This document shows, piece by piece, positions 11,301-32,060 of a stretch of 64,000 nt of DNA; position 1 is the stretch's first letter; each line of letters opens with the position of its first letter. The translations under genes and the position numbers were made by a program. Origin of the DNA: Pseudomonadota bacterium (lineage in GTDB: Bacteria; Pseudomonadota; Alphaproteobacteria; Rhodobacterales; Rhodobacteraceae). The notes under the pieces are model-generated. The model was not told where the DNA came from. It saw only the letters and a program-made list of their open reading frames with translations, and ran no database searches. The stretch spans positions 21,549-85,548 of the forward strand of contig JBCDAV010000014.1 in the NCBI GenBank assembly GCA_039184865.1, written 5' to 3'.

Positions 11301-14300
11301 CGCCGAAATCGTTGTCGATAATCGTCACCACAGCACCCCCGACAGCCACGGTGGTATCGCTGCCGAATGCGTTCAGATAGACGGTCAGTTGCTCGTCGCC
11401 CTCGATCTCCAGATCATCGGCGATATCGACGGTGATGAATGCGAAATTGTCGAAACCCGGAACGACCGCAATGTCCGTGAAGAAACCGCCGAGAACATCT
11501 GCATTCTCGGCCGGGTTCTCGCCAAAACCCTCGACCACGAACTCGAAGTTCGCATCGAAGAACGGGGTGAAATCGGTCTCGATCTGGAAGGTCGCGGTCC
11601 CGCCCTCCAGCACGGTTCCGTCCGGGGCGTCGATCAGCGTCAGCGATGCCTGAACGTCATCGATCGAGAAGATCGGATCGTCATTGAAGATATCGCCGAA
11701 CAGGTCGTCGGCGAACGGGTTGATCGTGCCGCCGGTCGCACCGGTCAGGATCAGATCGAATGTCTCGAAATCGTCGAGAATGTCGAACTCGCCGATTTGC
11801 ACCTCGCCGAAATCGTCGGTGTAGAACTCGCCGTCGAAGAACAGGTCCGAGAAAGACGGGGTCTCACTCAGGGAATCGCCGAACGCTGCAAGCTCGAAAG
11901 TCGCGACGTTCTCTCCGGGCTCGAAAACCACGGTGCCAGACGGGGTGATCCCGCCGAAATCGGAGGGCTCGGTATCGAAATGGCGAAGCTCCCACGTCAC
12001 TTCGGTCCGGCCCGAAAGGTCGCCCTGGCGCAGCAGTTCGACAGTCTGAAACTCCGGTCCGAACTCGCCTTCGAAGAGCGATATGAAACTGTCGATGAAG
12101 CCAACTTCGGGCAGCGTGGCGTCTCCGGCGGGTGCCGTGCCGTCATCATCGTTCAGGATCGTCGCGGACGCCGACGGGACGAGGATCTCAGTTCCGACCG
12201 CGTTGCTGAGGATGATCTCGAACGTCTCGTCGGCTTCCTCGGCGAAATCACCGACGACATCGATCTCGATCAGCTTGCGTTCCTCGCCCGCGGCAAAGGC
12301 GATGCTGCCCGACGGCAGGCGTCCGGCGAAATCCGCGAGGTTGACCGGGTTGGCCCCGGTCGGGCCAACGGCCCAGTCGACGCTCGCCGGTTCCGACAGA
12401 TCGCCAAGTCGATAGACGTCGAAGCGGAATGTGCTCGCCGCGGCCGTACCTTCCGCCTGACTTCGGTCGATGGCCGAAACGATCAGCCCCTCGATCGCGG
12501 GATCGGGCGCGTCGACCGTGATTGTGAAGGTATCGGACGCCGACAGACCGGTCCGGTCGGTTGCCGTGACCGTGACATCCGTAGCCCCGACATCGCCCAG
12601 ACCGGGCAGCCCGTAGAGGAACTGGTTTTCCGGATCGGAGGCGTCGAGGTTCAGCCACGACGGCAGGCCGGAGAAGTCCAGCGTCAGCACCTCGCGCCCG
12701 GTGAGCTGGCTTCCGTCAGGCAGCGTAGTGAAAAACGATGACGACGAGAAGTCGGAGTCCGTGAACACCCCGAACACACCGACCGAGCGGACCGGGTTCG
12801 TGACTCCGAGCGACTCGTTGGTCGGGTTCAGGAATTGCAGGTTGAATGGCAGACCGGCGGACAGGAACTGGTCCGCAACCGGATCGGTCACCTCGGGTGC
12901 ATCGGGCGTGTTCTCGATGAGGATCAGAAATCTCTCGGAGTTTGTAGCACCCCGGTCGTCTGTCGCCTGGAACTGGAAGAAACCGCCGTCCTGTTCGGTT
13001 TCCGGCGTTCCCGAGATCGTGCGGGTCGCTTCGTCGAAACTCGCCCAGGCAGGGGCGCTGAACATCTCGAGGCTGACGATCGTGCCGTCATTGTCCGTCG
13101 CGAAATCTTCGGGCAACTGGAACGAGAAGAACTCGCCCTCGACCAAATCGGGGAGGTCGGCGAAGGAAAGCCGCCGGATCAGCGGGATGCTGTTGGGCTC
13201 AGGCGGGTCCGGCGGTCCCGCCGGGTCGTTCAGGACCAGGGTCGCGTCGTCCTGTTCGCCGACGACGCCGTTGCCGACCTCGAAGCGCGTGACGGTCTCG
13301 ACCAGTTCGACCAGCTCCGCCGTGATCGTCAGCGGCGTGTCGTCGAGCACGTTCAGCGTCAGCTCCAGCGCCCGGCCGTCGGCGGACGTGGTCTCGTCAG
13401 TGACCGCGTCGAGCTGCCAGCGCCCGGTCAGCGGATCGAAATCGAGCTGGTCGCTCTCCGGCGAATTGTCCAGTTCGTCGTCCCCGTTGATCGTGTTGTA
13501 GAAACGGAAGTTCGTGATCTCCAGACCGTCCGGGATCTGCACGTCGATCACCGGGTTCGCCGTGGCGCCGCCGCTTGTGCGCATGAACACCGTGACGGTG
13601 ATCTCTTCGCCGATCAGCGGTGCGAAGTTCGAGGTTTCGATGTCGACCGTGACGTTCGGCTCCTCGGTGCGGCTGAAGCGCCGGACCTCGACGTCGTAGA
13701 GCTGCGAGGTGCTGTCATTCGAGCGGTCAGGATCGTCGCCGTCATGCGAGACCGTGGCGGTGAACTCGAACTCGGTTTCGAGTTCCGGGCGCCAGCGCAT
13801 CGGAATGGCGATGCTCGCTCCGGCACGCAACGGTTCCGTCAGTTCGACCGTCGTGCTGTAGTTCTCGAACGTCACATTCTGCCAGGGCGATCCGGTATAG
13901 CTCGTCGCGGCGACCGAGCCGGGGTCGATGACCTCCGGGTTCGGGAGATTGGACAGAATGTTGGGTGGCGGGCCGAGGTCTTCGACGACGGTGGCGCCGG
14001 TCGCATCCAGCAGCGAATTATTGGTGACGACCAGTTCGTAGAAGATCTCGCCCGTTCCAACACCGGTCTGGTCGCCAAGCGGGCGGCGCTCGATCGAGAG
14101 ATCGGCATCGTTCGGCACGGGGCTTTCGATCGGGGTCTGGAGCGAGGCCTCGTTGTCCGACGTGAAGGGATCGAAGCTGTCAGACGTGACAAGCGCGTCA
14201 ACCAGCAACGTCTCCCGGCCGTCGTCCGGGACCTCGACCTCCAGCGCGACCCGCCGCGTTTCGCCGGGCGCCAGCGGATCGAGCGCGAAGCTGTAGAAGA

Positions 14301-17300
14301 AGTCGCCATCGGCGGTCAGCACGACATCGCCGTTCCCATCGGTCGTCGCCGTCTCGCGCTGCGCGAACCCGATCGGCGTCACCCCGTCCAGAGCCTGGCG
14401 CACGACGACGCTGGGTTCGGCCGTAAAATCGGCCAGTTCGATCTCCAGCACCATGCCTGACGAGAAGTCGGGCCCGACATTGGTGATCTCGAAATCGTAG
14501 GACGCAGATGCGCCCGCTTCGATCGCACCGGCGGGCCCGAAGGCCACCAGTTCGAGATCTGCCTCGGACGGTCCTGCAAGTTCTTCGGAATACGCCGAGA
14601 AGACCGGCGCGTTGTCATCGTCGAAGATCTGCGCATAGACGAAGTAGCTTCCGGCATCGAGACCGGCGGTCGAGAACGTCACCGTGCCGGCACCGTGGCT
14701 TTCGGTCAGGAAGGCCGCGTCCTCGATCAGTTGTCCGTCGAAGCCGGTGTTGTCGGTATCGAAGAAGAAGTTGAGCGTCGCATCGGAGTCGGGGTCGATC
14801 GCCGTGTAGTCGATGACATAGGTCGGTGCGCCCGGCGACGAGTTCGGATCGAGCGTGATCGCATCCAGTGTCACTTCCGGTTTCGACGCCGGAATGAAGG
14901 CATCGTAGGTGACCGCGCCGAGGCCGGTCTCGTCCACGACCTGGATATCCCAGACGCCCGCGATCGGGTTGGTCACAAACACCGCACGGCCGAAGCTGGA
15001 CGACAGTTCGAGCGGCGCCTCGATCCCGTTGGCAGCGAACTCGTCCAAGGTGAACGTCTGCAGGATCGGACCGCCGACGGTCTCCTGATAGGTGACGATC
15101 ACGTCGACATCGCGCCCAGCGACGTTCTCCCAGAGCGCGTGCATCTCGAGATAGTCTTCGGTGCCAGCGACCTCCCAACTGCCGACCGCCAGCGCCGGTT
15201 TCGTGCTGGCGAACGTATCGAGGCCGTTCGCACTGTCGTAGCGAATCCCGATATCCTTGTTGCCGAAGCCGAACGGAACGTTCAGCACGCCAGCCTGCAA
15301 GGCGAAGTCATCGCCCTTGCTGGCCCCTTCGAAGAACGCGACCTGATCGAACTTGAACCCGGCATAGGGTCCGAATTTCGAGGTGTTCGGCACTGCGAAG
15401 TTTCCGTTCGCGGTGACGGTCGCGCTCCCGTCGCCGAGGGCGGCCTTGAGGCTTCCGGTGCCGGTGAAGGCATCGAACAAGGCCCGGAACTTGATGTTGC
15501 TGGCGTTGAACGAAAGCTGACTGAGGTTGAGCAGCGAGTCGACCGACAGCGAGAGAATCTGTTCCGCGCCAAAGATCACCTGGCCGTTGATCTCGAAGCT
15601 CGTGTCACCGGCTTTGGTTCCGAGCGTGGCGCTGGAACCGCGGTCGATCCGCAGATTGGCCGCAAGGTTGGCGGTGAATGCACGGATATCCGTCGGCTCC
15701 GTGAAGAAGACACCGTCGGGCTGTGCGGTCGCGGACTTGCCCAACCCGAGACCGAGTGCGCCACCGAGCTTGAACGGAAGCTGCGATGCCCCGCCGGGGC
15801 CGGAGAAGTCCGGGAAGATGTTCTCGAGTGTGAAGCCCAGCCGCGTCAGGAACAGTGGCGCAGCCAGATTGTTCGGGATCGGAACCTCGCCGTCGATGGT
15901 GACGGAAAAGCCGTTCGGCGTGATGCTTGTCGGGCCGTCCGGCACCAGAAAGTTCACGCGCGCGGAGATCGCATCTATCGCGCTGAACAGCGTACCTTTG
16001 GGAAACTTGAAGGCGCCGCCCAGCGTGAATGCCGTGATCTGGTTATCGGCGAGGGTCAGATCGGCACTCAGGTTCTCTGCCTTGAAGCCGCCGAACGTGG
16101 GCGTTGGCCCGATCACACCGAGCAGGCTGCCTTCGAGAACGCCGTCGGAGATCTTCACGCCGCGCGGCGGCGCGAGATCGATGATCAGTTGCGGGTCTTC
16201 CTCGGTGTCGAACAGCGGCGTCGAGACCGTCAGTTTGCCGTCGACCGTGATGTCCGGGAACAGCGCGGAATCATTTTGTGTGAACGTCGCGCCGAAGTTC
16301 TCGGGAGTTACGACGAACGCGTTGAAAGCGCTGAACGTCGTGTTCGCGAGCTGGAAACGACCGCCATCGATCCCGACGCCGGTCGCATCGATGCGCAAGG
16401 CGTTTACCGAGCCGGTGACACCAAGCCCGCCGGAGGAGAGCCCAAGGTTGATCCTGTCGCCCCCGAGTTCGTCGGGCAGCACGAACCCGCCGCCGACCTT
16501 GATGGTGTTGGGATCGAGCTGGATCGTCCCGACCTCGAACGACAGACCGCCGAGTTCGAGAGCCCCCGGCGACGGAAGCGTGATGTTCGAAGGCGCGCCG
16601 CCGCCTGCTGGCAGGTCGAAAGCCCCCGTGAAAAGCAATGTCCGTTCGTCGCCGACAACGCTGAAGACCTGACCTCGCTTGACGCTGATCTTGGTCGCGT
16701 CGATCTCTGCGGAGCCGCCGACAACCTCGATCAGCGCATCTGTGCCGTCGCGTCGACCGATGGTGAAGGTCCCATTGACGATGCACTTGGCGGGTTGCGA
16801 ATCGTCGATCGTTCCGCCCAGCACGACATAGGGGGGCACGCCGACGCATTTCGCGTCGATGAAGACCGTCGCCTCTTCAGAGACGTTCCCGGTTTGATCG
16901 GTGATCGTGTAGGTGAATTCGTCGCCGCCATTGGCCTCGAACGCGTCGAAATCGCTCGGCGTGTAGACGACGTTGCCGCCGACGATCAGGCTGCTCGGAT
17001 CGCCGGTGAAGAATTGCGGACCGGTGACGATGGTGAAGGACGACGGAACGATGTCGTCATCCTTGTCGCTGTCATTGGCGAGAAGCTGGCTGATCGGAAC
17101 GATGAGCGGGGCATCCGATGCTTCGGACAACTCGCCTGCTTCATCGTCCTCGGCGACCGGCGTGCTCTCCTTGTCATCATAGGTGATCGAGCCGCTGATG
17201 TTCCAGGCGGTGCCGGGGAGCGGCGCGTTCACGAGCACCGAAAAGGTTTCGGTCTCGCCCTCCTCCAGCGTGAAGACCACCTGGTCGCCGCCGCTGCCGC

Positions 17301-17478
17301 CGACGAGACCGGAGTCAAAAATGACCGTGTTACCGAGCCGCGCCAGCGTCTCGTCCTGGATCGTGAAGTGAGTGTAGTCCCACTGGATCAGGTACTCACC
17401 CGGCTCGCTGAGAACGAATGACCGAGATCCGCCGCCCTGATTGCCCGCAAAAGAAATATCCGTGACTTCGAGCGACAT
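8362..17478 (-). CDS. Giant RTX-repeat adhesin-like protein (cadherin/Big_9-like, DUF11-like, dystroglycan-type Ig, Calx-beta, RTX), probable type I secretion substrate
   Basis: About 3040 aa, very acidic, no signal peptide. PVAEDD/LANDSD cadherin-like units; ADLEL/ADLSI DUF11-like units; PAWASFDEATRTISGTP-type Ig units; Calx-beta units (FAAGEERKLIEIDVVGDFAEEADETFEIILSN); many GGxGxDxxx repeats; C-terminal DVFxF...DxIxDFELGVDxID blocks. Start at MSLEV (GGGAG RBS). Confidence 0.93.
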   Translation of the reverse strand: MSLEVTDISFAGNQGGGSRSFVLSEPGEYLIQWDYTHFTIQDETLARLGNTVIFDSGLVGGSGGDQVVFTLEEGETETFSVLVNAPLPGTAWNISGSITYDDKESTPVAEDDEAGELSEASDAPLIVPISQLLANDSDKDDDIVPSSFTIVTGPQFFTGDPSSLIVGGNVVYTPSDFDAFEANGGDEFTYTITDQTGNVSEEATVFIDAKCVGVPPYVVLGGTIDDSQPAKCIVNGTFTIGRRDGTDALIEVVGGSAEIDATKISVKRGQVFSVVGDERTLLFTGAFDLPAGGGAPSNITLPSPGALELGGLSFEVGTIQLDPNTIKVGGGFVLPDELGGDRINLGLSSGGLGVTGSVNALRIDATGVGIDGGRFQLANTTFSAFNAFVVTPENFGATFTQNDSALFPDITVDGKLTVSTPLFDTEEDPQLIIDLAPPRGVKISDGVLEGSLLGVIGPTPTFGGFKAENLSADLTLADNQITAFTLGGAFKFPKGTLFSAIDAISARVNFLVPDGPTSITPNGFSVTIDGEVPIPNNLAAPLFLTRLGFTLENIFPDFSGPGGASQLPFKLGGALGLGLGKSATAQPDGVFFTEPTDIRAFTANLAANLRIDRGSSATLGTKAGDTSFEINGQVIFGAEQILSLSVDSLLNLSQLSFNASNIKFRALFDAFTGTGSLKAALGDGSATVTANGNFAVPNTSKFGPYAGFKFDQVAFFEGASKGDDFALQAGVLNVPFGFGNKDIGIRYDSANGLDTFASTKPALAVGSWEVAGTEDYLEMHALWENVAGRDVDVIVTYQETVGGPILQTFTLDEFAANGIEAPLELSSSFGRAVFVTNPIAGVWDIQVVDETGLGAVTYDAFIPASKPEVTLDAITLDPNSSPGAPTYVIDYTAIDPDSDATLNFFFDTDNTGFDGQLIEDAAFLTESHGAGTVTFSTAGLDAGSYFVYAQIFDDDNAPVFSAYSEELAGPSEADLELVAFGPAGAIEAGASASYDFEITNVGPDFSSGMVLEIELADFTAEPSVVVRQALDGVTPIGFAQRETATTDGNGDVVLTADGDFFYSFALDPLAPGETRRVALEVEVPDDGRETLLVDALVTSDSFDPFTSDNEASLQTPIESPVPNDADLSIERRPLGDQTGVGTGEIFYELVVTNNSLLDATGATVVEDLGPPPNILSNLPNPEVIDPGSVAATSYTGSPWQNVTFENYSTTVELTEPLRAGASIAIPMRWRPELETEFEFTATVSHDGDDPDRSNDSTSQLYDVEVRRFSRTEEPNVTVDIETSNFAPLIGEEITVTVFMRTSGGATANPVIDVQIPDGLEITNFRFYNTINGDDELDNSPESDQLDFDPLTGRWQLDAVTDETTSADGRALELTLNVLDDTPLTITAELVELVETVTRFEVGNGVVGEQDDATLVLNDPAGPPDPPEPNSIPLIRRLSFADLPDLVEGEFFSFQLPEDFATDNDGTIVSLEMFSAPAWASFDEATRTISGTPETEQDGGFFQFQATDDRGATNSERFLILIENTPDAPEVTDPVADQFLSAGLPFNLQFLNPTNESLGVTNPVRSVGVFGVFTDSDFSSSSFFTTLPDGSQLTGREVLTLDFSGLPSWLNLDASDPENQFLYGLPGLGDVGATDVTVTATDRTGLSASDTFTITVDAPDPAIEGLIVSAIDRSQAEGTAAASTFRFDVYRLGDLSEPASVDWAVGPTGANPVNLADFAGRLPSGSIAFAAGEERKLIEIDVVGDFAEEADETFEIILSNAVGTEILVPSASATILNDDDGTAPAGDATLPEVGFIDSFISLFEGEFGPEFQTVELLRQGDLSGRTEVTWELRHFDTEPSDFGGITPSGTVVFEPGENVATFELAAFGDSLSETPSFSDLFFDGEFYTDDFGEVQIGEFDILDDFETFDLILTGATGGTINPFADDLFGDIFNDDPIFSIDDVQASLTLIDAPDGTVLEGGTATFQIETDFTPFFDANFEFVVEGFGENPAENADVLGGFFTDIAVVPGFDNFAFITVDIADDLEIEGDEQLTVYLNAFGSDTTVAVGGAVVTIIDNDFGALDDAATITRNQTIEIPVLDNDLGQPGDPFTITAVSDPAAGSASITPAGAISYTPDVNVVGVDTFTYTVANGAGDTDTATVAVSVLAGNPDPNAVDDSAATAVDTAVEVDVLANDSDLDLRELSVSFVGAAENGEADLTPDGTILYTPDLGFEGIDQLTYQVTTGTSVATATLSVSVGNAAPILVIDQLETEVEDRSADGSDRLIAELLLDDDGIGTHVFSVTGADAGFFRVVGDQLFLRGDAVLDAATDAELIVGLEVDDTDLAGAPEDTGSLTLNLIPFVNSAPVAFLDIVRSDDLDPIEIDVLDNDFDIDGDVLSLVSVGFATGGTFEIVNDKLMFTRTDATEIFETIAYEVTDGTDTVEGTLDLRLSEATVSVPPADIQGDDTAEELDGTPVGEVIAGAGGGDTIRAEGGDDTVRGDAGDDLVFAGTGNDSVSGGADVDAITGEQGSDTLSGGPGNDLIVGGPGEDLIYGGPDDDVIAPGPEPDQVFGGPGVDTVAYLDSTSPLTVDLGDSSQNTGDAAGDDLNEIENVVGAAGAINTLIGNADDNTLTGGALADSLDGGAGNDSLIGGPGADSMAGGPGDDTFAIDDAGDVLVELPGGGYDRALVFTSVTLADNIEAATLRGTDDLDVTAGSTGTWITGNSGDNELTGGASSDRLDGRAGNDTLDGAGANDILEGGSGADVFVLSVDTGIDTILDFELGVDLIDISALGARFTDMFIEDRGGDAVVAHASGTAILKGVASVDLSASNFIEATGAGPVRVVTGTAGNDVLSLTAGPVELQGLGGNDVLRVFNGEATLTGGTGDDIYQVYESGTVITELAGEGYDRVYSAVDLTLAGHIEFAAARSGAAIDLTGNAMANQIFGNGESNTLSGLDGNDRLGGEGGTDLLIGGLGNDVMFGGTEADVFAFSLGDGADVIRDFELGVDTIDLSATGLGFSDLMINDGPQGASVRYGLDSITLPGITAAQLTEDQFEFTV

Positions 17479-17581
17479 TGTCTCCCCCCGACGCACTCAT
17501 CCACGAAGAAATTGTCCAGTATGATGCGGTTCAGAACAAGACCGGTGCGGCAATTTGTTATAGAGTATCGTGACGGCTATT

Positions 17582-21734: not shown

Positions 21735-22187
21735 AACGCCAGCACCCTTCCTCCCGCCTTCAGAAATCTCCGGTCACCGGCACCGTCCCACCCAGGCGTC
21801 TGAGCACGGTTGGTCCAATTCGCACGGCGAATTCTGGTTGCCAAAAATCTGTTTCGAGTCGCCCGATGGGCGTGCCTACGGCGCGGGCAAGGCCCAAACG
21901 TGACCGACTTCTGCCGACGTTAACCAAACACTGTCCGAAAAACGCACCTCTCAGCCTGCGCAAACACGCGTTCGGGATCGCTTAACCTTACCCGATGCGG
22001 CCACGCCTTGACGCGCCGGGTCGAAATCAGTGACTGTTCTTTGAGCAGGTGGGATGTCCAGCGAGGCATCTCATTGAAACAAGAGGCAGGTTCATCTCGG
22101 GGCCGCAAGAACGCGGCTTCCATACACGGCATTCCAATCGTGCGGCCAATAAGTCTCCTCGAGAGACGCAACACGGGAGGAAAAGCA

Positions 22188-24119
22188 ATGCGTGTGGTAA
22201 CTGTCCTAGGCCCCTCGCAGTCCGGCAAGACAGAGCTGACGGCGGCCTTGGCAGGTCTCGACGCCAGTCAGACCGGCCGAATGGAAGCATCCGGGGGCGT
22301 GGCGGCCCTGCAGGTGTTTTCCTATCTTGAAGACGACTGGGCGGCGATCGACATTGCCGGCGGGTCCGACAACATCGCCCAGGCCGGACCGGCGCTGGCT
22401 GCCAGCGACGCGGCCGTGCTCTGTGTCCCGCCCGAGGCGGACGCAGCCGTGCTCTGCGCGCCCTATCTGCGGCTCATCGAAGAAGCCGAAATCCCGTGTT
22501 TTCTGTTCATCAACCGCATGGATCAGGCCACCGAGCGGGTCCGCGACGTGGTCGCGGCACTCCAGAGCTTCTCGCAGCACAGCATTGTTCTGCGCCAGGT
22601 TCCGATGCGCGACGGCGGCACCGTGGTCGGCGCGGTCGATCTGATCTCGGAGCGCGCGTGGCGGTATCAGGATGGCCAGCCCTCCGCCCTCATCGAGATG
22701 CCCGAAGAAATCAAACCCCGCGAAAGCGAGGCGCGGTCCGAACTGCTCGACTCGCTCGCGGATTTCGACGACGCGCTGCTCGAACAGTTGATCGACGATC
22801 AGGAACCGCTGACCGGCGATCTCTATCAGACAGCGACGGAGGTTCTGCGCAGCAACAGCGTCATCCCGTGTTTCCTCGGATCTGCGGCGAACGGCAACGG
22901 CGTGACGCGGCTGATGAAATCACTGCGGCACGAAGCGCCGGAATACGAGGTCGCCCGCGAGCGGCTCGGCGGCGACGCCCTGGCTGTGAGCTGCCTCGCC
23001 GACAGTGCCAAGCATCTCGGCAAGTTCGTGGTTCTCCGCGCACTTGGCGACGGCGTCGCAAGCGGCTCTCACCTCGGCGGTCAGAATGTCAGCACGATGA
23101 CGGCAATCGACGCGAAGACACCCCAGCCGAGCCTGTCCGCCGGCAGCATCGGTCTGATCCTGAAGACGGATCATATCAGCGTCGGCGAAATCCTCGGCGC
23201 TGAAACATCGGAACCGCTGCCGGAATGGGCGGGTGCCCGGCCGCCGGTGTTGAAACAGATCGTGCGTCCGGTGCGCGAGCGCGACGAGGCCCGGCTGTCA
23301 TCCGCGCTTGGCCGAATGGGTGAAGTCGACCCCGGCCTGACCGTGGGACACGACGATCGCTCCGGCGAAACGTTGCTGGGGCTGCAAGGACAGCAGCATT
23401 GCCGGCGCGTCGTCGAGCGGCTTGCCGACGAGTTCGGGATCGAGACAGAACTGGCCAACGTCGTACCGGCGTTTCGGGAAACCATCACCAAGGAAACGAC
23501 GCTGCATCACAGACACCGCAAGCAGTCCGGCGGTGCAGGCCAGTTTGCGGATGTCGTCATGAAGATCCGCCCGAGGCCGCGCGGCGAAGGGCATCACTTC
23601 GACGAGGAGGTCAAGGGCGGTGCGGTCCCGCGCAAGTTCATTCCGGCCGTCGAAACTGGCGCGCGCGAAGCGCTCGAGGAAGGCCCGGGCGGGTTTCCGG
23701 TCGTCGATGTGGCGATCACACTGATGGACGGCAAACACCATGCCGTCGACAGTTCGGAGTTCGCCTTCAGAACGGCGGGACGGAACGGGGTCCGGGAGGC
23801 ATTGACCTCGCTGAGCACGCAGGCGCTTCAGCCGATCAACAGCGTTCACATCCACATCCCGTCGGTCTTTGTCGGAGCGCTCGTTCCGGTGATCAGCAGT
23901 CTCAGCGGACAGGTGCTCGGGTTTGACAGCCATCCGGAGGCGAAGGGATGGGATGTCTTCAACGCGCTGCTTCCAGCAGCGGCGGAGGAGGATCTTGCCC
24001 GGTCGCTCGGCCGGTTGTCGCGCGGCACGGGCTGGTACGAGTCGAGCTTCGACCATTATGAACCGTGCCGTTTCGAGGATACGACGGCGGCGACAGAGGA
24101 CGCGCGGGTCCACGCTTAG
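22188..24119 (+). CDS. Elongation factor G-like protein (EF-G paralogue, degenerate GTPase centre)
   Basis: GPSQSGKT (G1), DIAG (G3), NRMD (G4); domain IV motifs HRKQSGGAGQFADV, GGAVPRKFIPAV, DGKHHAVDSSEFAF; GGGAGG RBS before ATG 22188. Confidence 0.92.
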   Translation: MRVVTVLGPSQSGKTELTAALAGLDASQTGRMEASGGVAALQVFSYLEDDWAAIDIAGGSDNIAQAGPALAASDAAVLCVPPEADAAVLCAPYLRLIEEAEIPCFLFINRMDQATERVRDVVAALQSFSQHSIVLRQVPMRDGGTVVGAVDLISERAWRYQDGQPSALIEMPEEIKPRESEARSELLDSLADFDDALLEQLIDDQEPLTGDLYQTATEVLRSNSVIPCFLGSAANGNGVTRLMKSLRHEAPEYEVARERLGGDALAVSCLADSAKHLGKFVVLRALGDGVASGSHLGGQNVSTMTAIDAKTPQPSLSAGSIGLILKTDHISVGEILGAETSEPLPEWAGARPPVLKQIVRPVRERDEARLSSALGRMGEVDPGLTVGHDDRSGETLLGLQGQQHCRRVVERLADEFGIETELANVVPAFRETITKETTLHHRHRKQSGGAGQFADVVMKIRPRPRGEGHHFDEEVKGGAVPRKFIPAVETGAREALEEGPGGFPVVDVAITLMDGKHHAVDSSEFAFRTAGRNGVREALTSLSTQALQPINSVHIHIPSVFVGALVPVISSLSGQVLGFDSHPEAKGWDVFNALLPAAAEEDLARSLGRLSRGTGWYESSFDHYEPCRFEDTTAATEDARVHA

Positions 24120-24263
24120 CCCGCATTTTTGACGGTTTCAGACCGTCCGGGAATACAGCTTCATGGGCGGCGGGCTTCTCGCCTCCCTAAACTGTTTCAA
24201 CGGTAGAGAACCGGGCTGAAGCGTCGGGCCGTCGGCGTGTATCCGGTGTGAGGGCGTCCGGGT

Positions 24264-25514
24264 CTATTCGGCCGGTTCGACTGACAGGCTGCTCGGCAGG
24301 CTCACATGCTTGACGACCTCCGGCAGCGTGAAGACGTCGAGCTGCCGGTCGAGATCCGAAATGTCCACGCGCCCGCAGGCTTCCCAGTTCCCCGGTGCCG
24401 CCTCTGCGAACTTCTTCAGCGCGAGCACCGGTATTCCCGTGGACTTCGTGGCCGCCTCGACGCGCTGCACGGTGTTCACGATCTTGCCGATGCCCGAGAA
24501 CGCGAGCCGCGCCGGGACGCCGATATTTCCGTACATCACGTCGCCGATCGCCAGGCCGATCCCGAAATCGAGCGGCGCATTGCCGGGCGTTCCGGTCTCG
24601 ATTGCCTCTTCGCGCAAGCGCATCGCATCGCGTACCGCTTTCTCGGCCTTGGCCACCGCCCCCATCGGGCAGTCGGCCTCGATCGGAAAGATCGCGAGCA
24701 CGCCGTCGCCGATGAAGTTCAGAATCTCGCCGCCATGTTCGATCACGGGTCCGGCAGTACATTCGAAATAGCGGTTCAGGAGCGCGAGGTAGCTGTCGCC
24801 GTCCATCGTGTCGGACAGACGGGTCGAGCCGCGAAGGTCCGAGAACCAGACCACGGCGGGAATCCGCTCGCCGTCACCGCGCTTGATCTCGCCTGCCAGC
24901 ACCTTCCAGCCCGCCGTCGGTCCCAGATAGGCGTTGGCCAGGTTGGACATCACCCGCTTCTGGATCGCCGCGTGGACCGCGACCGCGAGGATCTTCTGGA
25001 TGTGCTTGAGTGCCGCGAGGTCGTCGTCGGTGAACCCGCCCTCGCGCATCGTCATCCAGCTCGTCATCATGCCGGTCGCACCGCCCGAGAAGTGCTCGAC
25101 CTCGGCGATTTTGAAGTTGGTCCGGGTCAGCAGGTAGTCCGTGTAACCCTGCTCGACGAACGAATCGAACACGTCGAAATCGAGCATCGCGTTCTCGCCG
25201 ACCAGCGTGCGCCGCAGGGTTTCAAGATTATTCGTCTGAGCATGATAGAAAGGGCTCTTCAGCCAGTGCTCGTTGCCGGCGGTCGAGTGATAGTATTGCT
25301 CAAGCTCGGCGCCCTTGTCGGGATACCAGAACACCTGCTCGGCCCGGAACAGCGGGTGCAGCACCGGCCAGCTCAGCGCGGTGCGATCCAGCGGAATGCC
25401 GATGGCCCGCAGGCGCTGGCAGAGTTTCTCGAACAGGATCAGGATGTCGGGGTCGATCAGCGCCTTGCCGAGCAACCAGTCCTCGATTTCAGCCGTCAGC
25501 GTCGAATGAGACAT
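24264..25514 (-). CDS. Class III nucleotide (adenylate/guanylate-type) cyclase with N-terminal sensory (GAF-like) domain
   Basis: WFSDLRGST and FIGDGVLAIF metal-binding Asp motifs; GDVMYGNIG; NTVQRVE transition-state motif. Confidence 0.9.
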   Translation of the reverse strand: MSHSTLTAEIEDWLLGKALIDPDILILFEKLCQRLRAIGIPLDRTALSWPVLHPLFRAEQVFWYPDKGAELEQYYHSTAGNEHWLKSPFYHAQTNNLETLRRTLVGENAMLDFDVFDSFVEQGYTDYLLTRTNFKIAEVEHFSGGATGMMTSWMTMREGGFTDDDLAALKHIQKILAVAVHAAIQKRVMSNLANAYLGPTAGWKVLAGEIKRGDGERIPAVVWFSDLRGSTRLSDTMDGDSYLALLNRYFECTAGPVIEHGGEILNFIGDGVLAIFPIEADCPMGAVAKAEKAVRDAMRLREEAIETGTPGNAPLDFGIGLAIGDVMYGNIGVPARLAFSGIGKIVNTVQRVEAATKSTGIPVLALKKFAEAAPGNWEACGRVDISDLDRQLDVFTLPEVVKHVSLPSSLSVEPAE

Positions 25515-25562
25515 CGACCCGATATAAGATCACTTGGAAGGCAGTCCAACCACCTAGATAAA

Positions 25563-26360
25563 TCAGGCTGCGAGCGTATCCTGTGACGGCGGGCCGATCT
25601 CTCCGAGTGGCGGCCCGGGGATGTGCACGCCGAAGATCTGGACACTGTTTGAAACCTTGGCGGCGATGTCGCGGGTGACCAGCGCGTTGAAAGCCTGGCG
25701 CAAGCGCGGCTGGCGCTCGAGCAGGTCCTGCAGTTCTTCGCGATCCCACGCAATGTAGCTGCCGCCGGACGGCAAGGATGCGGTGGCAGACGCCGGCCGG
25801 TCGAGCAGAAAACCGATCTCGCCGATGAACGTGTGGTCCGACACCTTGAAGTGATTGCCCGACTTTTCGATGTCGATCTGCCCGGTCAGAACAAAGAAGA
25901 GATGCTCGGCCCGGACGCCCTCCCGCGTCATCTCAAGCGGCTCGGAGCAGAAGATCATCTCTCCGGCCTTCATGAGTTGGCGGAACTGACCCGGCTCGAG
26001 CGTATCGAATTTCGCGAAGATCTCCCGGTCGGTCTTGGAGAAACCAATGGGAAACCGGCTGTAGATCAGCAGCACCAGACCGTGCGTCGTAGCGATACCG
26101 ATCAGGACCGAGCCGAAGATCGCGTCCCAGAGCGGCGTCGCCGTGTGGAAGTAGTAGTACAGGATGTACATGACGGTCCCGATCAGCACCAGCAGCCGCA
26201 GGACGATCTGGTTGCGGAACGCGAAGCCGAGCACGTAGGTCAGCGTGGCCGCGTGGACCAGAAGAGATGTTTCAAACAGATACTGCGTCATGACAGGCTC
26301 CCCGTCCGGTCTTTCGTTGGGCGCGACCTTGAGGGATTCGGCGATGCGGGACTGTGACAT
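25563..26360 (-). CDS. Membrane protein with cyclic-nucleotide-binding domain (Popeye-like)
   Basis: Three to four N-terminal TM segments (VLGFAFRNQIVLRLL...), then EMTREGVRAEHLFFVLTGQIDI and FIGEIGFLLDRPASATA CNBD motifs. Start 26360 or 26291. Confidence 0.85.
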   Translation of the reverse strand: MSQSRIAESLKVAPNERPDGEPVMTQYLFETSLLVHAATLTYVLGFAFRNQIVLRLLVLIGTVMYILYYYFHTATPLWDAIFGSVLIGIATTHGLVLLIYSRFPIGFSKTDREIFAKFDTLEPGQFRQLMKAGEMIFCSEPLEMTREGVRAEHLFFVLTGQIDIEKSGNHFKVSDHTFIGEIGFLLDRPASATASLPSGGSYIAWDREELQDLLERQPRLRQAFNALVTRDIAAKVSNSVQIFGVHIPGPPLGEIGPPSQDTLAA

Positions 26361-26457
26361 TCGTCTCACAGCCCCCTGAGATTTCGGAACAATTTACGTA
26401 TGCGGCGCTCGCGCCCGACTTCTGATCGCCGCCGCACTGCGCCGCGCGCTGGAAATC

Positions 26458-28185
26458 CTAGGCCGCACCCGCGAATTGCGCCGACATGGCATCCCGCGCG
26501 TCATCGGTGATCTTGTTGAACATGTTCTCCGGCACCGAGAAGGCATGGCCGGGCTGCAGGGCCTCCATCGCCGCGGCGACATCGTCCGGCCACGGCGTGT
26601 CGCCCGGCAGGTTCAGGGCGCGCAAACCGTCCTCGCAGGTGTTCGGAATGAACGGCTGGGACAGAACCATGTAGAGCCGCGTCAGGTTCAACGCGCAACG
26701 GATGATCGCGCCGGCGCGCTCGGGATCGGTCTTGAAGACCGCCCAGGGCTCCTGAACCTGCAGGTATTCGTTGCCGATCACCCAGATCGCGCGGAGCTCG
26801 GCCGCGGCCTTGCGAACCTCGAACTCCTCCCAGTGCTGCGCATAGGCCGCCACGCGTTGCGCCAAGTCGGCGATCAACGCCTGCTCGGCGTCGCCATAGT
26901 CGCCCTCGGGCACCGCTTCACCGAATTTCGAGCGGCAGAACTTGGTGACGCGGCTGACGAAGTTGCCCAGCACGTCGGCGAGATCCTTGTTCACGCCGGT
27001 CTGGAAGCTCTCCCAGGTGAAGTCGCTGTCTGAGCCTTCCGGCGCGTTCGAGAGCAGCCACCAGCGCCAGTAGTCCGCCGGCAGGATATCGAGCGCCTGA
27101 TCCATGAAGACGCCGCGCCCCTGAGAGGTCGAGAACTTGCCGCCTTCATAGTTCAGCCAGTTGAACGACTTGATGAAGTCCACGAGCTTCCACGGCTCGG
27201 CCCCGTCCTGGTTCGCGCCCATGCAGGTCGCCGGGAACGACAGTGTGTGGAACGGCACATTGTCCTTGCCCATGACCTGAACATAGCGGACGTCAGCAGC
27301 CCCCAGATCTTCCCGCCACCAGCGCTGCCAGGCAGAATCGTCCTGCCCGGTCGCGTCGGCCCACTCTGCCGTTGCCGCGATGTATTCGATCGGCGCATCG
27401 AACCAGACATAGAAGACCTTGCCCTCCATGCCCGGCCAGTCCTCGGCTCCGCGCCGCACCGGAATGCCCCAGTCCAGATCGCGCGTGATGCCACGATCCT
27501 GCAATCCGTCGCCGTCATGTAGCCACTTCTTGGCGATGGAGGTCGACAGGACGGGCCAGTCGGTCTTTGTGTCGATCCAGGCGTCCAGACGGTCCTTCAT
27601 CGCCGACTGGCGCAGGTAGAGATGCTTGGTCTCGCGCGGTTCCAGATCCGTCGAACCGGAGATCGTCGAGCGTGGATTGATCAGGTCGGTCGGGTCGAGC
27701 TGCTTGGTGCAGTTCTCGCACTGATCGCCGCGAGCCCGCTCGTACCCGCAGTTCGGGCACGTACCCTCGATGTAGCGGTCGGGCAGGAAACGCCCGTCCG
27801 CATGAGAATACACCTGCTGCTCGGTGATCTCCTCGATCAGCCCGGCATCTGCGAGCCGGCCGGCCATGTGCTGGGTCAGCACGTGGTTGCGCTCGGACGA
27901 CGAGCGGCCGAAAAAGTCGAAGGACATGGCGAAGCCGTCCGCCAGATCTTTCTGGACCTTCCAGAGCCGCGCGCAATACTCGGCGACAGGCTCGCCTTCC
28001 TTCGCCGCGGCCAGTTCTGCGGGCGTGCCGTGCTCGTCGGTCGCGCAAATCAGCAGGACCTCGTGGCCGCGCAGGCGCATGTAGCGGGCATAGGCGTCCG
28101 AGGGCAACTGGCTACCGACCAGATTGCCGAGATGCTTGACCCCGTTGATGTACGGGAGCGCCGATGTGATCAGGATGCGCGCCAT
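26458..28185 (-). CDS. metG: Methionine--tRNA ligase
   Basis: [10 protein letters not shown]...HLGN (HIGH-like), ICATDEHG, Zn-knuckle CPNC...CENC, GKFSTS (KMSKS-like), [10 protein letters not shown]. Confidence 0.98.
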
Positions 28186-28355: not shown

Positions 28356-30212
28356 GTGGCACAGGCGCTCGACATCGACCGAAACGACGGCACGCTCGCC
28401 GGGCGCGTGCGTACGCTGTTCTCGATCGACGTGAGATCGCTCGCCGCGATGCGCGTGCTGCTCGGCATCACCGTCGTCTACTGCCTGTTGATGATCTTCC
28501 CGGATCTGCGCTGGTTCTACACCGACCAGGGATTTCTCACGCGGGCCGAGGCGCTGTCCGACACGCCATACGCCAAGGCGTCGCTCCTGTTCTTCAACGG
28601 CAGCTACACCTTTGCGGTCGTGCTCTGGGTCCTCGCGCTGCTGGCGGCGGCGTCCTTCATGGTCGGGTTTCGAGCGCGGCTTTCCGCGCTGCTCTGCTGG
28701 ATCCTCTACATGTCGTTCGTCGGCCGCAATCCGCTGGTCGGACAGGGCGGCGATGCGCTGATCCTGCTGTTGCTGTTCTGGTCGATGTTCCTTCCGGTCG
28801 GCCGCGCATTCTCGATCGATGCGGCCTTGTCGGACAATCCGCGCCCGAGCGGAAAGGACAGAGAGGTCTGCTCGGTCGCGACCGTCGGCCTGCTCCTCCA
28901 GGTTCTCTACGTCTACGTCTTCGGCGCCCTCCTGAAGACCGGCCCGCAATGGATGCCGGACGGCAGCGCGGTCTACTTCGCGCTGCATCTCGACACCTTC
29001 GCGACCGAACTTTCGATGTGGTTCCGCCAGTTCTTCGCGCCGACCCAGATCCTGACCTACTTCGTCTTCTGGCTGGAACTGCTCGCCCCCGTCCTGCTGT
29101 TCTTCCCGGACAAGCGGATGCTGGTCCGCACGGCCACACTGGCCCTGCTGATTGCCATGCACCTGGGCTTCCGCGTCTTCATCCGCATCGGGCATTTCTG
29201 GATGGCGAGCCTGTCGTCGCTGTGCACATACATCCCGGGCTGGGTCTGGGACTGGATCGAGGCGCGGTACTGGACCGACGGTCAGCGCTCGATCGAGATC
29301 TACTACGACCGCGATTGCGGCTTCTGCCGGAAGGTCGCCCTGATCCTGCGGGAGTTCTTCCTGCCCATCAGCGTCCCGATCCGCCCGGCGCAGGATTTCG
29401 GCCCCATCGGTGAGGTGTTGGAGCGCGAGGTGAGCTGGGTCGTCATTGATCACACGGGCAAACAAAGGCTGCACTGGGATGCGGTCGCTTATGTGATGTG
29501 TCAGTCTTGGTGCCTGTTGCCGCTCGGCTGGATCGCCGTCGCGGTCGGCAAGATCGGCGTCGGGAAGTTCCTCTACGACAGGATCGGCGCGAACCGGAGA
29601 CCGCTTGGCAGGCTGACCGCGTGGCTGACCCCCGAGACGGGAATCGATGCCCGGCTGGGCGGCGTGACGCGGGCGGGCCTATGCGCCGTGATCGCGGTCT
29701 GCTTCATCTGGAACTTCGACATGATGTCGGGCCAGACCCGCGTCGAGGTTTTGAAGGGAAGCCCGCTCGAACGTCCGATGGCCTTTCTTGGTCTGACCCA
29801 GCGCTGGGGCATGTTCGCCCCGTTTCCTGCGACGGATGAGGGATACATCATCGCCGAAACGATGACCGAGAACGGCGATCATCTGGACGTCGCGCATCGT
29901 CAGCCGGTGCCTTATGTCGACGGTGCGCCGGAAAACCTTTTCTCGCACTTCTCGAATTATCGCTGGCGGCGCTACCAGAACCGCGTGATCCTTTTCGAGA
30001 ACAAGGAGCGGTTCAAGCAGCTATCGCGATTTGCCCGGGCCGCGTGCGCGCTCCACAACCGTGGGCGCGGCGAGGGCGAACGGATCGTGCAGATGTCGAT
30101 CCGCGCCCCGATGAAGCGCCAGTACCTCGACTTTCAGCAGGAGCACATCGTCGCCGACTTCGGCGCATGGAACTGCGTCTTCCCGAACACGGAAGCCCCG
30201 AGCACCGGATAA
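28356..30212 (+). CDS. HTTM-domain membrane protein with inserted DCC1-like thiol-disulfide domain
   Basis: FSIDVRSLAAMR, LFWSMFLP, LLKTGPQW and LGLTQRWGMFAP HTTM-family motifs; internal YYDRDCGFC (DxxCxxC) with SWVVID...HWDAV of the DCC/DUF393 type. Confidence 0.85.
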   Translation: MAQALDIDRNDGTLAGRVRTLFSIDVRSLAAMRVLLGITVVYCLLMIFPDLRWFYTDQGFLTRAEALSDTPYAKASLLFFNGSYTFAVVLWVLALLAAASFMVGFRARLSALLCWILYMSFVGRNPLVGQGGDALILLLLFWSMFLPVGRAFSIDAALSDNPRPSGKDREVCSVATVGLLLQVLYVYVFGALLKTGPQWMPDGSAVYFALHLDTFATELSMWFRQFFAPTQILTYFVFWLELLAPVLLFFPDKRMLVRTATLALLIAMHLGFRVFIRIGHFWMASLSSLCTYIPGWVWDWIEARYWTDGQRSIEIYYDRDCGFCRKVALILREFFLPISVPIRPAQDFGPIGEVLEREVSWVVIDHTGKQRLHWDAVAYVMCQSWCLLPLGWIAVAVGKIGVGKFLYDRIGANRRPLGRLTAWLTPETGIDARLGGVTRAGLCAVIAVCFIWNFDMMSGQTRVEVLKGSPLERPMAFLGLTQRWGMFAPFPATDEGYIIAETMTENGDHLDVAHRQPVPYVDGAPENLFSHFSNYRWRRYQNRVILFENKERFKQLSRFARAACALHNRGRGEGERIVQMSIRAPMKRQYLDFQQEHIVADFGAWNCVFPNTEAPSTG

Positions 30213-30293: not shown

Positions 30294-32060
30294 ATGGCCG
30301 TAAGCTCCGGAGTAGATCCGTTACTGGTGGACGCAGCGACCTACCTCGCCGCGGCCGTCATCGCCGTGCCCGTCTTCAAACGGCTGAAGCTCGGATCTGT
30401 CGTCGGATATCTCGTCGCCGGTGCAATCATCGGACCCTCCGGCGTCGGGCTGATCGAGGAAGCGCAGTCGGCGCTCAGCTTTGCCGAGTTCGGGGTCGTG
30501 CTGCTGTTGTTCGTGATCGGGCTCGAGCTGCAGCCCGCGCGGCTCTGGCGCCTGCGGACGGAAATCTTCGGGCTCGGTCTCTTGCAGGTCGCGATCACGA
30601 TGATCGTCCTCGCGGTTCTGCTCGGCGGTGTCGGGCCGTTCGTGACAAACTCGGCGATCGCGATCGGCGGCGCGCTGGCGCTTTCCTCGACGGCGTTCGC
30701 GATCCAGATCCTGCGCGAACGCGGCGATCTGACCACGCCCTGGGGCGACAGGGCCTTCTCGATCCTGCTGTTCCAGGATCTCGCGATCGTCCCTTTGCTG
30801 GCGCTTGTGTCGCTGCTCTCGCCGTGGGGCGGCGGCGGCGCAAGTTTCACCCTGTCCCAGATCGCCATCGGCCTCGGCGCGATCTGCGGGCTCGTCGTGG
30901 TCGGGCACTACCTGCTTCGCCCGCTCTTTCACATTCTCGCGGCAACCAAATCCGACGAGATCTTCACGGCAGCGGCGCTTCTCGTGGTGATCGGTTCGGC
31001 TATCGCGATGCAGGTCGCGGGTCTCTCCATGGCGCTCGGCGCCTTTCTCGCTGGTGTCCTGCTGGCCGAAAGCGAGTTCCGCCACCAGCTTGAGTCGGAT
31101 ATCGAGCCGTTCCGCGGTCTGCTGCTCGGCCTTCTGTTCATCGCAATCGGCGCGACGGTGTCGCTCAATGCGGTGGCCGAGAACTGGACGATTGTGCTTC
31201 TCGGCGCGCTCGGTCTGGTCGCTCTGAAGTTCTCACTGTTGTTCGGTCTCTGCCGCGTCTTCGGATCGCCGAATGCAGACGCCCTACGGATCTCGAGCGT
31301 TCTGAGCCAGGGCGGCGAGTTCGGCTTCGTCCTGTTCACCGTGGCGATGGGCGTCGGGTTGATCACCCAGCGCGAATCGAACCTCCTGACCGCCATCGTG
31401 ACCGTGACCATGGCCATGACACCAATCGCGATGCTGCTGGCCGACCGGTTCCTACGTCAGGGCAGCGACGACATGAGCGAGATCGACCTTGCCGAGCACG
31501 CCGAGGCCGCACCCGTGATCGTCGTTGGGTTCGGCCGCTTCGGTCAGGTCATCGCGCGGATCCTGAAACTGCGCGGCTACGAGGTGACCCTGATCGACAG
31601 CTCGGCCGAACGCATCCGCATTGCCCGCACGTTCGACAACAAGGTGTTCTTCGGCGACGTCGCCCGCGGCGACATCCTGCGCATCGCCGGCGCCGACCAG
31701 GCGCGCGCGATCTTCCTCTGCGCCGACGAGCACGCCTCCGTCGTGCAGGCCACGCGCATGCTGCGCGAACGCTTTCCGCACGTCCTGATCTTTGCGCGCG
31801 CGCATGACCGGGTCGCCAAGGTCGAACTGCGCAAGGCGGGCGCGGACGTGGTCATCCGCGAGATGTTCGAATCCAGCGTGGCGATGGCGCGCGAGGCGCT
31901 GGATCGGTTCGGAGACGGCGAGATTGCCGAGGAGATCGTCGAGGAGTTTCGTCGACGCGACGCCGAGCTACTGCGGCTGCAGAGCGAATTCGGCTCCGAA
32001 AAGGGCTATGAGAAAATGCGCGAGGAGTTCGATCTGCAGAATGAGAACGCCACGACCTGA
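30294..32060 (+). CDS. CPA2 monovalent cation:proton antiporter, KefC/KefB-like with KTN domain
   Basis: AEFGVVLLLFVIGLEL, ALSSTA, LLFQDLA, LAESEFRHQLE, SQGGEFGFV; C-terminal GFGRFGQ Rossmann domain. Confidence 0.95.
   Translation: MAVSSGVDPLLVDAATYLAAAVIAVPVFKRLKLGSVVGYLVAGAIIGPSGVGLIEEAQSALSFAEFGVVLLLFVIGLELQPARLWRLRTEIFGLGLLQVAITMIVLAVLLGGVGPFVTNSAIAIGGALALSSTAFAIQILRERGDLTTPWGDRAFSILLFQDLAIVPLLALVSLLSPWGGGGASFTLSQIAIGLGAICGLVVVGHYLLRPLFHILAATKSDEIFTAAALLVVIGSAIAMQVAGLSMALGAFLAGVLLAESEFRHQLESDIEPFRGLLLGLLFIAIGATVSLNAVAENWTIVLLGALGLVALKFSLLFGLCRVFGSPNADALRISSVLSQGGEFGFVLFTVAMGVGLITQRESNLLTAIVTVTMAMTPIAMLLADRFLRQGSDDMSEIDLAEHAEAAPVIVVGFGRFGQVIARILKLRGYEVTLIDSSAERIRIARTFDNKVFFGDVARGDILRIAGADQARAIFLCADEHASVVQATRMLRERFPHVLIFARAHDRVAKVELRKAGADVVIREMFESSVAMAREALDRFGDGEIAEEIVEEFRRRDAELLRLQSEFGSEKGYEKMREEFDLQNENATT

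Follow-up and report, generated by a model that had tools for sequence, protein, structure and literature searches.

A candidate lineage-specific cyclic nucleotide signalling locus: a class III cyclase beside a POPDC-like membrane protein in marine Paracoccaceae

The window analysed here is a stretch of 64,000 nucleotides (nt) from a Pseudomonadota bacterium of the Rhodobacteraceae (assembly GCA_039184865.1, contig JBCDAV010000014.1, positions 21,549 to 85,548 of the forward strand). Two of its minus-strand genes lie between metG and the gene of an EF-G-family GTPase. One encodes a class III nucleotide cyclase, and the other a protein with three transmembrane (TM) helices and a cyclic nucleotide-binding domain (CNBD), here called the receptor. 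On balance, we lean towards reading the two genes as a lineage-specific, plausibly coupled locus of physiological cyclic nucleotide monophosphate (cNMP) signalling, rather than as a defence system or a co-evolved matched pair. An ordinary signalling role is preferred because the odd residues of each protein are shared by its whole family, and because the pairing is confined to one lineage. An earlier note on this DNA had taken the same substitutions as marks of a matched, self-contained pair, which is not borne out since each belongs to a whole family.

Gene layout and conservation of the pairing

The genes needed for the argument are the following.
24264 to 25514, minus strand: cyclase gene, 416 amino acids (aa), with an N-terminal alpha/beta sensor-type domain, a long helix and a class IIIb catalytic domain
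25515 to 25562, minus strand: spacer between the receptor and cyclase genes, 48 bp, which holds a promoter-like element
25563 to 26291, minus strand: receptor gene, 242 aa, with three TM helices and a cytoplasmic CNBD (bacterial POPDC-like family)
26458 to 28185, minus strand: metG (methionyl-tRNA ligase), the conserved upstream neighbour, directly 5' of the cyclase gene in receptor-less relatives

As described before, the two genes share a strand and are 48 bp apart, with the receptor stop codon TGA at 25565 to 25563 and the cyclase ATG at 25514. Both have many homologues, the cyclase with E-values down to 1e-252 and the receptor down to 1e-114, and are therefore real genes and not chance open reading frames (ORFs). 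The open frame of the receptor runs from 25563 up to a GTG at 26369. Its start is most likely the ATG at 26291 (MTQYLF...), which would give a protein of 242 aa, because GGGGAG lies 7-12 nt upstream and because both the close homologues (MTxY) and the database gene call begin there. For the same reasons the ATG at 26360, the start implied earlier, is less likely.

We followed the pairing from both sides, by a receptor-based scan that took one genome per species and used an alignment of 11 receptor sequences, and by a cyclase-based sample of ten independent orthologues looked up by exact protein (loci are given L numbers). The scan returned relatives of the receptor at 43 loci, spread over Rhodobacterales, Sphingomonadales, Hyphomicrobiales and Rhodospirillales, with a few in Gammaproteobacteria. 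The cyclase adjoins the receptor in five of them (L001-L005), always in the order metG, receptor, cyclase. Seen from the cyclase, a receptor lies directly upstream in 3/10 orthologues (L050, L051 and L055). The adjacency on which the earlier note built is thus conserved within one clade, but not across either family. The nearest relatives are metagenome-assembled genomes of marine Paracoccaceae/Pseudomonadota, and the sole sequencing run with the locus sequence is marine metagenome DNA.

The linked clade consists of the window, L001/L002/L048, L003-L005, L050, L051 and L055. The distance between receptor and cyclase is 48-52 bp in the window, L001, L002, L048, L050 and L051 (five lineages), 46 bp in L055 by the called gene ends, and 188-250 bp in L004 and L005. 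Identity across the linked loci is 36-75% for the receptor, 63-89% for the cyclase and 75-90% for metG. Where the receptor is missing, the cyclase comes next after metG, at most a 50-aa ORF intervening (L044, L045, L046/47 and L054), two small opposite-strand genes separate metG and cyclase (L053), or the metG link is also lost (L049 and L052). The metG-cyclase spacer repeatedly takes insertions, since L003, L053 and L054 carry other genes there. The inserts are a transporter gene in L003 (2169 to 3032, minus strand, 287 aa, PF01226 at 153 bits), a DJ-1/PfpI gene with an 89-aa ORF in L053, and a 50-aa ORF in L054.

Neighbour-joining gene trees place the linked receptors in one clade, with that of L051 (36% identical) branching outside. 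In the cyclase tree the basal lineages are receptor-less, and receptor-bearing and receptor-less lineages are interspersed above them. The simplest reading would be a single insertion of the receptor gene into an older metG-cyclase arrangement, followed by losses; this is provisional because the trees carry no support values. The adjacency accordingly appears as a lineage-specific arrangement inside a conserved metG synteny.

The cyclase

The domains and residues of the cyclase referred to below are:
25035 to 25514, minus strand: N-terminal domain, residues 1-160, with two helices, six strands and interspersed helices in the AlphaFold model
24924 to 25028, minus strand: connecting helix, residues 163-197 (35 residues), between the sensor and catalytic domains in the AlphaFold model
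24327 to 24872, minus strand: class III catalytic domain, residues 215-396, from Pfam PF00211 and Foldseek
24837 to 24839, minus strand: metal Asp D226
24702 to 24722, minus strand: LNFIGDG, with Asn266 (24717 to 24719) at the Lys/Glu base-specifying position and the metal Asp270
24486 to 24509, minus strand: RLAFSGIG, with R336, Ala338, Ser340 (the classical Asp/Thr position) and Gly341 (usually Val)
24474 to 24476, minus strand: transition-state N347, with R351 at 24462 to 24464

PF00211 matches residues 222-363 with 29.5 bits against a cut-off of 21.9. In the AlphaFold model (mean predicted local distance difference test score 83.8), Foldseek superposes the catalytic domain on Cya2, CyaC and CyaB with a root mean square deviation (rmsd) of 3.0-3.6 A, and aligns the cyclase over its full length with OaPAC and bPAC, which share the sensor-helix-cyclase layout. 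Among PDB sequences the cyclase is closest to the guanylyl cyclase Cya2 (2W01, E 1.8e-19), followed by a phytochrome-cyclase fusion, OaPAC, bPAC, CyaB and CyaC, while the Pycsar cyclase 7R65 reaches only E 4e-3. The metal Asps (D226, D270) and the N-x3-R motif (N347-x3-R351) are intact and conserved, in agreement with the first description. An active enzyme would be expected because D226, D270, N347 and R336 are invariant in 59 orthologues and R351 nearly so. Additionally, both Asps are present in 144/144 representatives of the wider family.

The N-terminal part was harder to name. Its ~200 residues matched no significant Pfam family (E up to 10) and no PDB sequence, even as a profile, and Foldseek on the full cyclase model gave no sensor-fold name, the matches being dominated by the catalytic domain. 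The GAF-like label given to it in the earlier note is accordingly a guess. The conserved residues of this domain are G39, R44, H53-P54, W63, D126-Y127 and G160-F161. In an exhaustive search the ~400-residue architecture was found in more than 1000 clusters at 50% identity (E <1e-30). The cyclase of the window is a soluble, vertically inherited and slowly evolving enzyme of a marine Paracoccaceae lineage.

Class IIIb cyclases are defined by Thr or Ser at the second base-specifying position. The HMMER alignment places Asn266 opposite the Glu of Cya2 and the Lys of OaPAC, and Ser340 opposite the Gly of Cya2 and the Thr of OaPAC. The first position is thus neither the Lys of an adenylyl cyclase nor the Glu of a guanylyl cyclase, and Ser340 fits the class IIIb type, as 135/144 relatives have Thr (93) or Ser (42) at this position. 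In guanylyl cyclases the pair is Glu with Cys, Ser, Thr or Gly, and in Cya2 it is Glu-Gly (PMC4215837). The earlier claim that the adenine-selecting Lys and Asp are both replaced is therefore half right: Lys has given way to Asn266, but Ala338 does not stand for the Asp, whose classical position is that of Ser340 in the Cya2 alignment. The form RLDFTVIG, which had been given as the usual one, is the true consensus of the wider family, and the three motifs read from the DNA, LNFIGDG and RLAFSGIG in the cyclase and FIGEIGFLLDRPASAT in the receptor, translate exactly.

Ala338 is nevertheless pocket-associated. Residue 338 covaries with residue 266 in the 142 representatives having residue 338 (chi-square P ~1e-46, kinship ignored):
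266 is Lys: 338 is Asp in 62, Glu in 4, other in 0
266 is Arg: 338 is Asp in 3, Glu in 32, other in 0
266 is non-basic: 338 is Asp in 1, Glu in 3, other in 37

The combination Asn/Ala/Ser/Gly at positions 266/338/340/341 is unique among the wider-family representatives and is invariant or nearly so in the 59 orthologues (58-89% identity), including receptor-less ones. The nearest 50%-identity clusters have Asp or Ala at 266, and so are also without Lys. Collectively, these alignments indicate that the pocket is truly non-canonical and under selection. The pocket types of the wider family include Lys-Asp with Thr (~62), Arg-Glu with Ser or Thr (32), many uncharged pairs, and three Glu/Gly pairs like that of Cya2. 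To our knowledge, the Arg-Glu type has no characterised member. Rv1900c, which reportedly uses ATP although its first specifying residue is not Lys, speaks against a non-canonical messenger here.

The receptor

The receptor is divided as follows.
26055 to 26288, minus strand: three TM helices, residues 2-24, 28-48 and 55-79 (AlphaFold)
25644 to 26036, minus strand: CNBD, with helices 86-109, beta-roll 110-183 and helices 184-216
25782 to 25829, minus strand: phosphate-binding cassette FIGEIGFLLDRPASAT, residues 155-170

The proposal of a Popeye-like TM-plus-CNBD receptor agrees well with our results. The protein has three TM helices and a CNBD (AlphaFold model with a mean score of 89.6), and passes the Pfam thresholds of both POPDC1-3 (PF04831; 34.5 bits against a gathering score of 28.1) and cNMP_binding (PF00027; 30.2 bits against a cut-off of 27.5). 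When the receptor was split, the TM part by itself still matched positions 5-82 of the POPDC1-3 profile (17.5 bits, E 0.0047), and the CNBD part matched positions 101-135 (12.2 bits). Distant members of the family give the same full-span POPDC1-3 match, most of 109 receptor homologues have a precomputed PF04831 match, and some members already bear the database label 'Popeye protein conserved region'. Foldseek superposes the CNBD on those of HCN2, MloK1, PKG and CRP with an rmsd of 2.6-3.7 A over ~125 residues, and no POPDC structure was among the top matches of this domain. The near-invariant residues of the TM region are R26, R32, Y42, Y45, P53 and W55.

The receptor family consists mainly of alphaproteobacterial inner-membrane proteins of ~220-240 aa. 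Among the papers searched, none dealt with this bacterial family. According to POPDC reviews, the Popeye domain is confined to POPDC proteins and has its closest relative in bacterial CRP (PMC6562197, PMC5872366). Some genomes carry two receptor-family genes in tandem (L006, 9084 to 10651; L013; L020, 10001 to 12474), and in L020 the alignment of the second copy falls into two parts, a sign of a possible frameshift or of decay.

The cassette reads FIGE...PASAT, in which the ribose-binding Gly157-Glu158 and the phosphate-binding Ser168-Ala169-Thr170 are retained. Across 145 relatives F155, G157, E158, A169 and K212 are invariant, R104 is found in 143/145, and position 168 is Ser or Thr in 144/145. 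The absence of the canonical Arg, which binds the cyclic phosphate and whose loss was pointed out from the sequence at the outset, is confirmed: its column is occupied by Ala167, with Ala in 127/145 relatives and Arg in 0/145. Arg165 was considered as a stand-in for the missing Arg and was rejected as a family rule, being Arg in only 48/145 relatives. Animal POPDC proteins lack the cassette Arg yet bind cAMP, and their non-canonical cassette is made up of the motifs DSPE and FQVT (PMC5872366). These two motifs were found neither in the receptor nor across the 145 relatives. Judging from its conserved cassette residues, the receptor would most likely still bind a cNMP and signal to its membrane domain or to a membrane partner.

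Promoter-like element before the cyclase

Alignment of the 60 bp 5' of the cyclase ATG in orthologues revealed an element in the spacer.
25521 to 25549, minus strand: promoter-like element, TTGGAC (25544 to 25549), 17 nt, TATATC (25521 to 25526), 6 nt, ATG

Relative to the ATG, position -12 is T and position -11 is A in 11/11 independent orthologues, usually within CTAT, whether the upstream gene is the receptor, metG or another (L001-L005, L044-L052). This register fits the -10 hexamer of a transcript starting at the cyclase ATG itself, and the element is similar to the sigma-70 -10 consensus of Alphaproteobacteria. The cyclase ATG is not preceded by a Shine-Dalgarno sequence. A consensus promoter and terminator scan of 24000 to 26700 returned nothing, the last base of the element, C, failing the consensus rule. 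These observations suggest a leaderless cyclase mRNA with its own promoter. With such an element right at the cyclase ATG, expression of the cyclase need not depend on an operon; as no terminator was found, transcription could still run on from the receptor gene into the cyclase.

Discussion

In the signalling role that we favour, some signal acting on the N-terminal domain would set the activity of the cyclase through the long helix, and the catalytic domain would presumably dimerise and make a 3',5'-cyclic nucleotide. The product would probably be a purine cNMP made with an altered or relaxed choice between ATP and GTP, because the Asn266/Ser340 pocket, together with Ala338 and Gly341, is fixed in the whole orthologue group. 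On binding a cNMP, the receptor would switch its conserved TM domain, or a partner protein in the membrane, to a different state. One sublineage probably acquired its gene between metG and the cyclase in a single insertion, and most descendants have retained it ~50 bp 5' of the cyclase. In that position it is plausibly a local effector of the cyclase product, in a link that would be optional on both sides. That the receptor reads the output of the neighbouring cyclase in the lineage of the window is a tentative proposal, to which we give a little less than an even chance.

Several points weigh against such coupling, which is plausible and which we infer from the arrangement of the genes. In 38 of the 43 receptor loci there is no cyclase of the same family within 10 kb, and these unlinked loci have no conserved neighbour beyond local taxon synteny; other cyclase domains lie within 10 kb in 3 of the 38, which we judged to be about background. 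The receptor is absent beside the cyclase in seven of the ten orthologues. In L003 the two genes are 1090 bp apart, with an opposite-strand formate/nitrite-transporter gene between them, and the receptor evolves much faster than the cyclase. The adjacency also travels with the metG synteny and is therefore not independent evidence of a functional link. We infer from its conservation that the cyclase may have a promoter of its own. Lastly, CNBDs that have lost the cassette Arg usually bind cNMPs less well, and the receptor could therefore have another ligand. The two genes might then be neighbours by descent only, with the receptor sitting in an insertion-prone metG-cyclase spacer and hearing the cNMP of any cyclase, or a different ligand. 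We regard this as rather unlikely. It is in line with the unrelated insertions in the same spacer (L003, L050, L053 and L054), with the unlinked state of most members of both families, with the putative cyclase promoter, and with the finding that neither odd motif correlates with the pairing. However, several lineages retain the shared strand and the ~50 bp spacer even though divergence has brought their receptors down to 36-50% identity, and in L050 the new genes entered 5' of the receptor and not between receptor and cyclase. Moreover, a CNBD protein beside a cyclase is a functionally expected partner (PMC3770947).

The substitutions could also be read as the signature of a dedicated pair with a non-canonical messenger (cCMP, cUMP or another cNMP), in which the Asn/Ser pocket selects the base and the Arg-less cassette reads the product. 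The change from Lys to Asn, the small residues Ala338 and Gly341 that would reshape the pocket, the strict conservation of this pocket and the lack of Lys in the nearest 50%-identity clusters (Asp or Ala) speak for it, and a few pocket residues are reported to suffice to give class III cyclases pyrimidine or guanine specificity (bioRxiv 10.64898/2026.08.12.744502). We nevertheless find it very improbable, as the closest solved relatives are the purine cyclases Cya2, bPAC/OaPAC, CyaC and CyaB (E 1.8e-19 for Cya2 against 4e-3 for 7R65) and the pocket and cassette traits do not covary. The covariation of the pairing with both substitutions, which was the check put forward in the earlier note, fails: the pocket is identical in receptor-less orthologues, and the cassette is Arg-less in 145/145 relatives, which are mostly unlinked. 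A wider form of the idea, in which the metG-linked cyclase clade makes a messenger beyond plain cAMP (cGMP, dual-purine, pyrimidine or another cNMP) and the Arg-less POPDC-like protein is its cognate receptor, is improbable. Were this wider form true, the locus would parallel the animal POPDC-adenylyl cyclase complex in bacteria and might even be related to it by descent, and it would make a convenient model for cyclic nucleotide reading by POPDC-type proteins that lack the cassette Arg.

Abortive infection of the Pycsar or Pucsar kind, with a phage-activated cyclase and a membrane CNBD effector that damages the membrane, is hardly credible for this locus. The architecture of a class III cyclase with a TM effector is superficially alike, the PADLOC PycC model PDLC00734 gives 66.8 bits on the cyclase, the receptor CNBD is weakly like that of PycTIR, and a Pycsar-type TIR gene adjoins the receptor in one relative, L050. 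However, PDLC00734 scores 65-93 bits on three canonical Lys/Asp/Thr family members, 83-84 bits on one Arg/Glu/Ser and one Asp/Thr/Ser member, 61.5 bits on a Glu/Gly-type control and 75.7 bits on a receptor-less orthologue of the cyclase. The PycC match is thus generic to the domain, because 5/6 control cyclases match or exceed 66.8 bits, all three canonical ones among them, and the Pycsar reading of the pair was rejected after these controls. By model scores and PDB matches, and not by a tree, the cyclase does not belong specifically to the immune PycC/PucC clades. On the receptor, PADLOC matched only the CNBD part of TIR-effector models (PDLC00731 and PDLC02371), and weakly (E 2e-4; the receptor of L051 against the PycTIR CNBD, E 1e-8); it found no TIR domain and no match to a TM-effector model. 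The TM effectors described for Pycsar and Pucsar are pJV1-spdB3 3TM proteins, and faster evolution has been reported for immune than for physiological cyclases (bioRxiv 10.64898/2026.08.12.744502). In contrast, the cyclase of the window is a syntenic core gene beside metG, with 58-89% identity among orthologues, no effector in 7/10 of them and housekeeping neighbours. This is not the sporadic, fast-evolving, defence-island distribution of immune systems. Relatives of the receptor were not found in IMG/VR viral contigs. The earlier preference for sensory signalling over classic Pycsar defence is thereby supported, by the metG synteny in receptor-less relatives as well as by the generic PADLOC match, and we see no sign of phage defence or of a new messenger.

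In L050 the genes inserted between metG and the receptor (3166 to 4041) code for a TM protein of 135 aa and a TIR protein of 150 aa. The TIR protein matches PF10137 (CAP12/Pycsar-effector TIR) with 123 bits and the PADLOC candidate defence gene PDC-S35 with 203 bits. The two ORFs may be one split gene, since the PDC-S35 models are ~230-280 aa long with the TIR domain C-terminal. We treated them as another spacer insertion, outside the module.

Compared with known systems, the cyclase resembles the class IIIb sensor cyclases (Cya2 2W01, bPAC/OaPAC, Spirulina CyaC and P. aeruginosa CyaB) in its catalytic fold, the two metal Asps, the transition-state Asn and Arg, and the Thr/Ser type at the second base position, and it shares the order of sensor, long helix and cyclase with bPAC and OaPAC. 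It differs from them by Asn at the first base position, where adenylyl cyclases have Lys and guanylyl cyclases Glu, by Ala338 and Gly341 in place of the usual Asp/Glu and Val, and by a sensor domain without a match to a described family.

The receptor shares with animal POPDC1-3 (PF04831) the three N-terminal TM helices, the cytoplasmic CNBD-type domain, a score above the Pfam threshold and the Arg-less cassette. Unlike the animal proteins, it has an otherwise canonical cassette (F-I-G-E ... P-A-S-A-T) without DSPE or FQVT, and it is a bacterial and much shorter protein without the long C-terminal domain or a known partner such as a K2P channel or AC9. Animal POPDC proteins interact with membrane partners such as TREK-1 and AC9; Baldwin and colleagues are reported to have linked POPDC1 with AC9 in 2022. 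The channels MloK1 and SthK are likewise membrane proteins with a C-terminal cytoplasmic CNBD, and the CNBD of the window superposes on that of MloK1 with an rmsd of ~3.6 A. The receptor differs in its TM part, which consists of just three helices and lacks a pore or selectivity-filter region, and it is also without the cassette Arg that is present in MloK1.

The closest functional analogue is found in Xanthomonas campestris, where XC_0250 is a class III guanylyl cyclase with a non-canonical pocket and the adjacent XC_0249, a CNBD-GGDEF effector, binds its product (PMC3770947). Both loci have a class III cyclase with non-canonical pocket residues beside a CNBD protein, and the pair of the window would likewise be physiological and not defensive. 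They differ in that the output of the window's effector would be a three-TM membrane domain and not a GGDEF enzyme, and in that the adjacency described here is limited to one clade. Pycsar and Pucsar also place a class III cyclase by a small TM-effector gene, and the receptor CNBD is distantly like that of PycTIR. In the window, by contrast, the cyclase has a large sensor domain and its gene belongs to the conserved syntenic core, while PADLOC places the effector outside the PycTM family and finds no TIR domain in it; most orthologues are effector-less, and there is no defence island.

If the pair is coupled, it offers a simple two-gene system for studying two uncharacterised families. The cyclase family is very large, shares a sensor domain of no described family, and has a base pocket whose residues have diversified in covarying combinations. 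The bacterial three-TM CNBD family is filed by Pfam with animal POPDC; reviews restrict the Popeye domain to POPDC proteins.

Neighbouring genes

The locus forms no compositional island, as G+C is 62-68% across the window. The surrounding genes are of the housekeeping type, namely metG and the genes for a KefB/C-type exchanger, a photolyase-related protein and an EF-G-family GTPase. Genes of the window outside the locus include:
22008 to 24119, plus strand: divergent EF-G-family GTPase gene, convergent to the cyclase gene; the listed ORF starts at TTG
28356 to 30212, plus strand: HTTM-domain membrane protein with a long C-terminal extension
30294 to 32060, plus strand: KefB/KefC-type gene with Na_H_Exchanger and TrkA_N domains, 3' of the HTTM gene
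8362 to 17496, minus strand: 3044-aa ORF with Big_9, cadherin-like, He_PIG, Calx-beta and RTX nonapeptide repeats

In the EF-G-family protein, domains III, IV and C match strongly and the GTPase domain weakly (40 bits); its product looks like a divergent EF-G paralogue. The gene order exchanger, metG, cyclase recurs in the relatives L044, L046, L051 and L055. From its repeats, the product of the 3044-aa ORF is predicted to be a giant secreted RTX-type adhesin.

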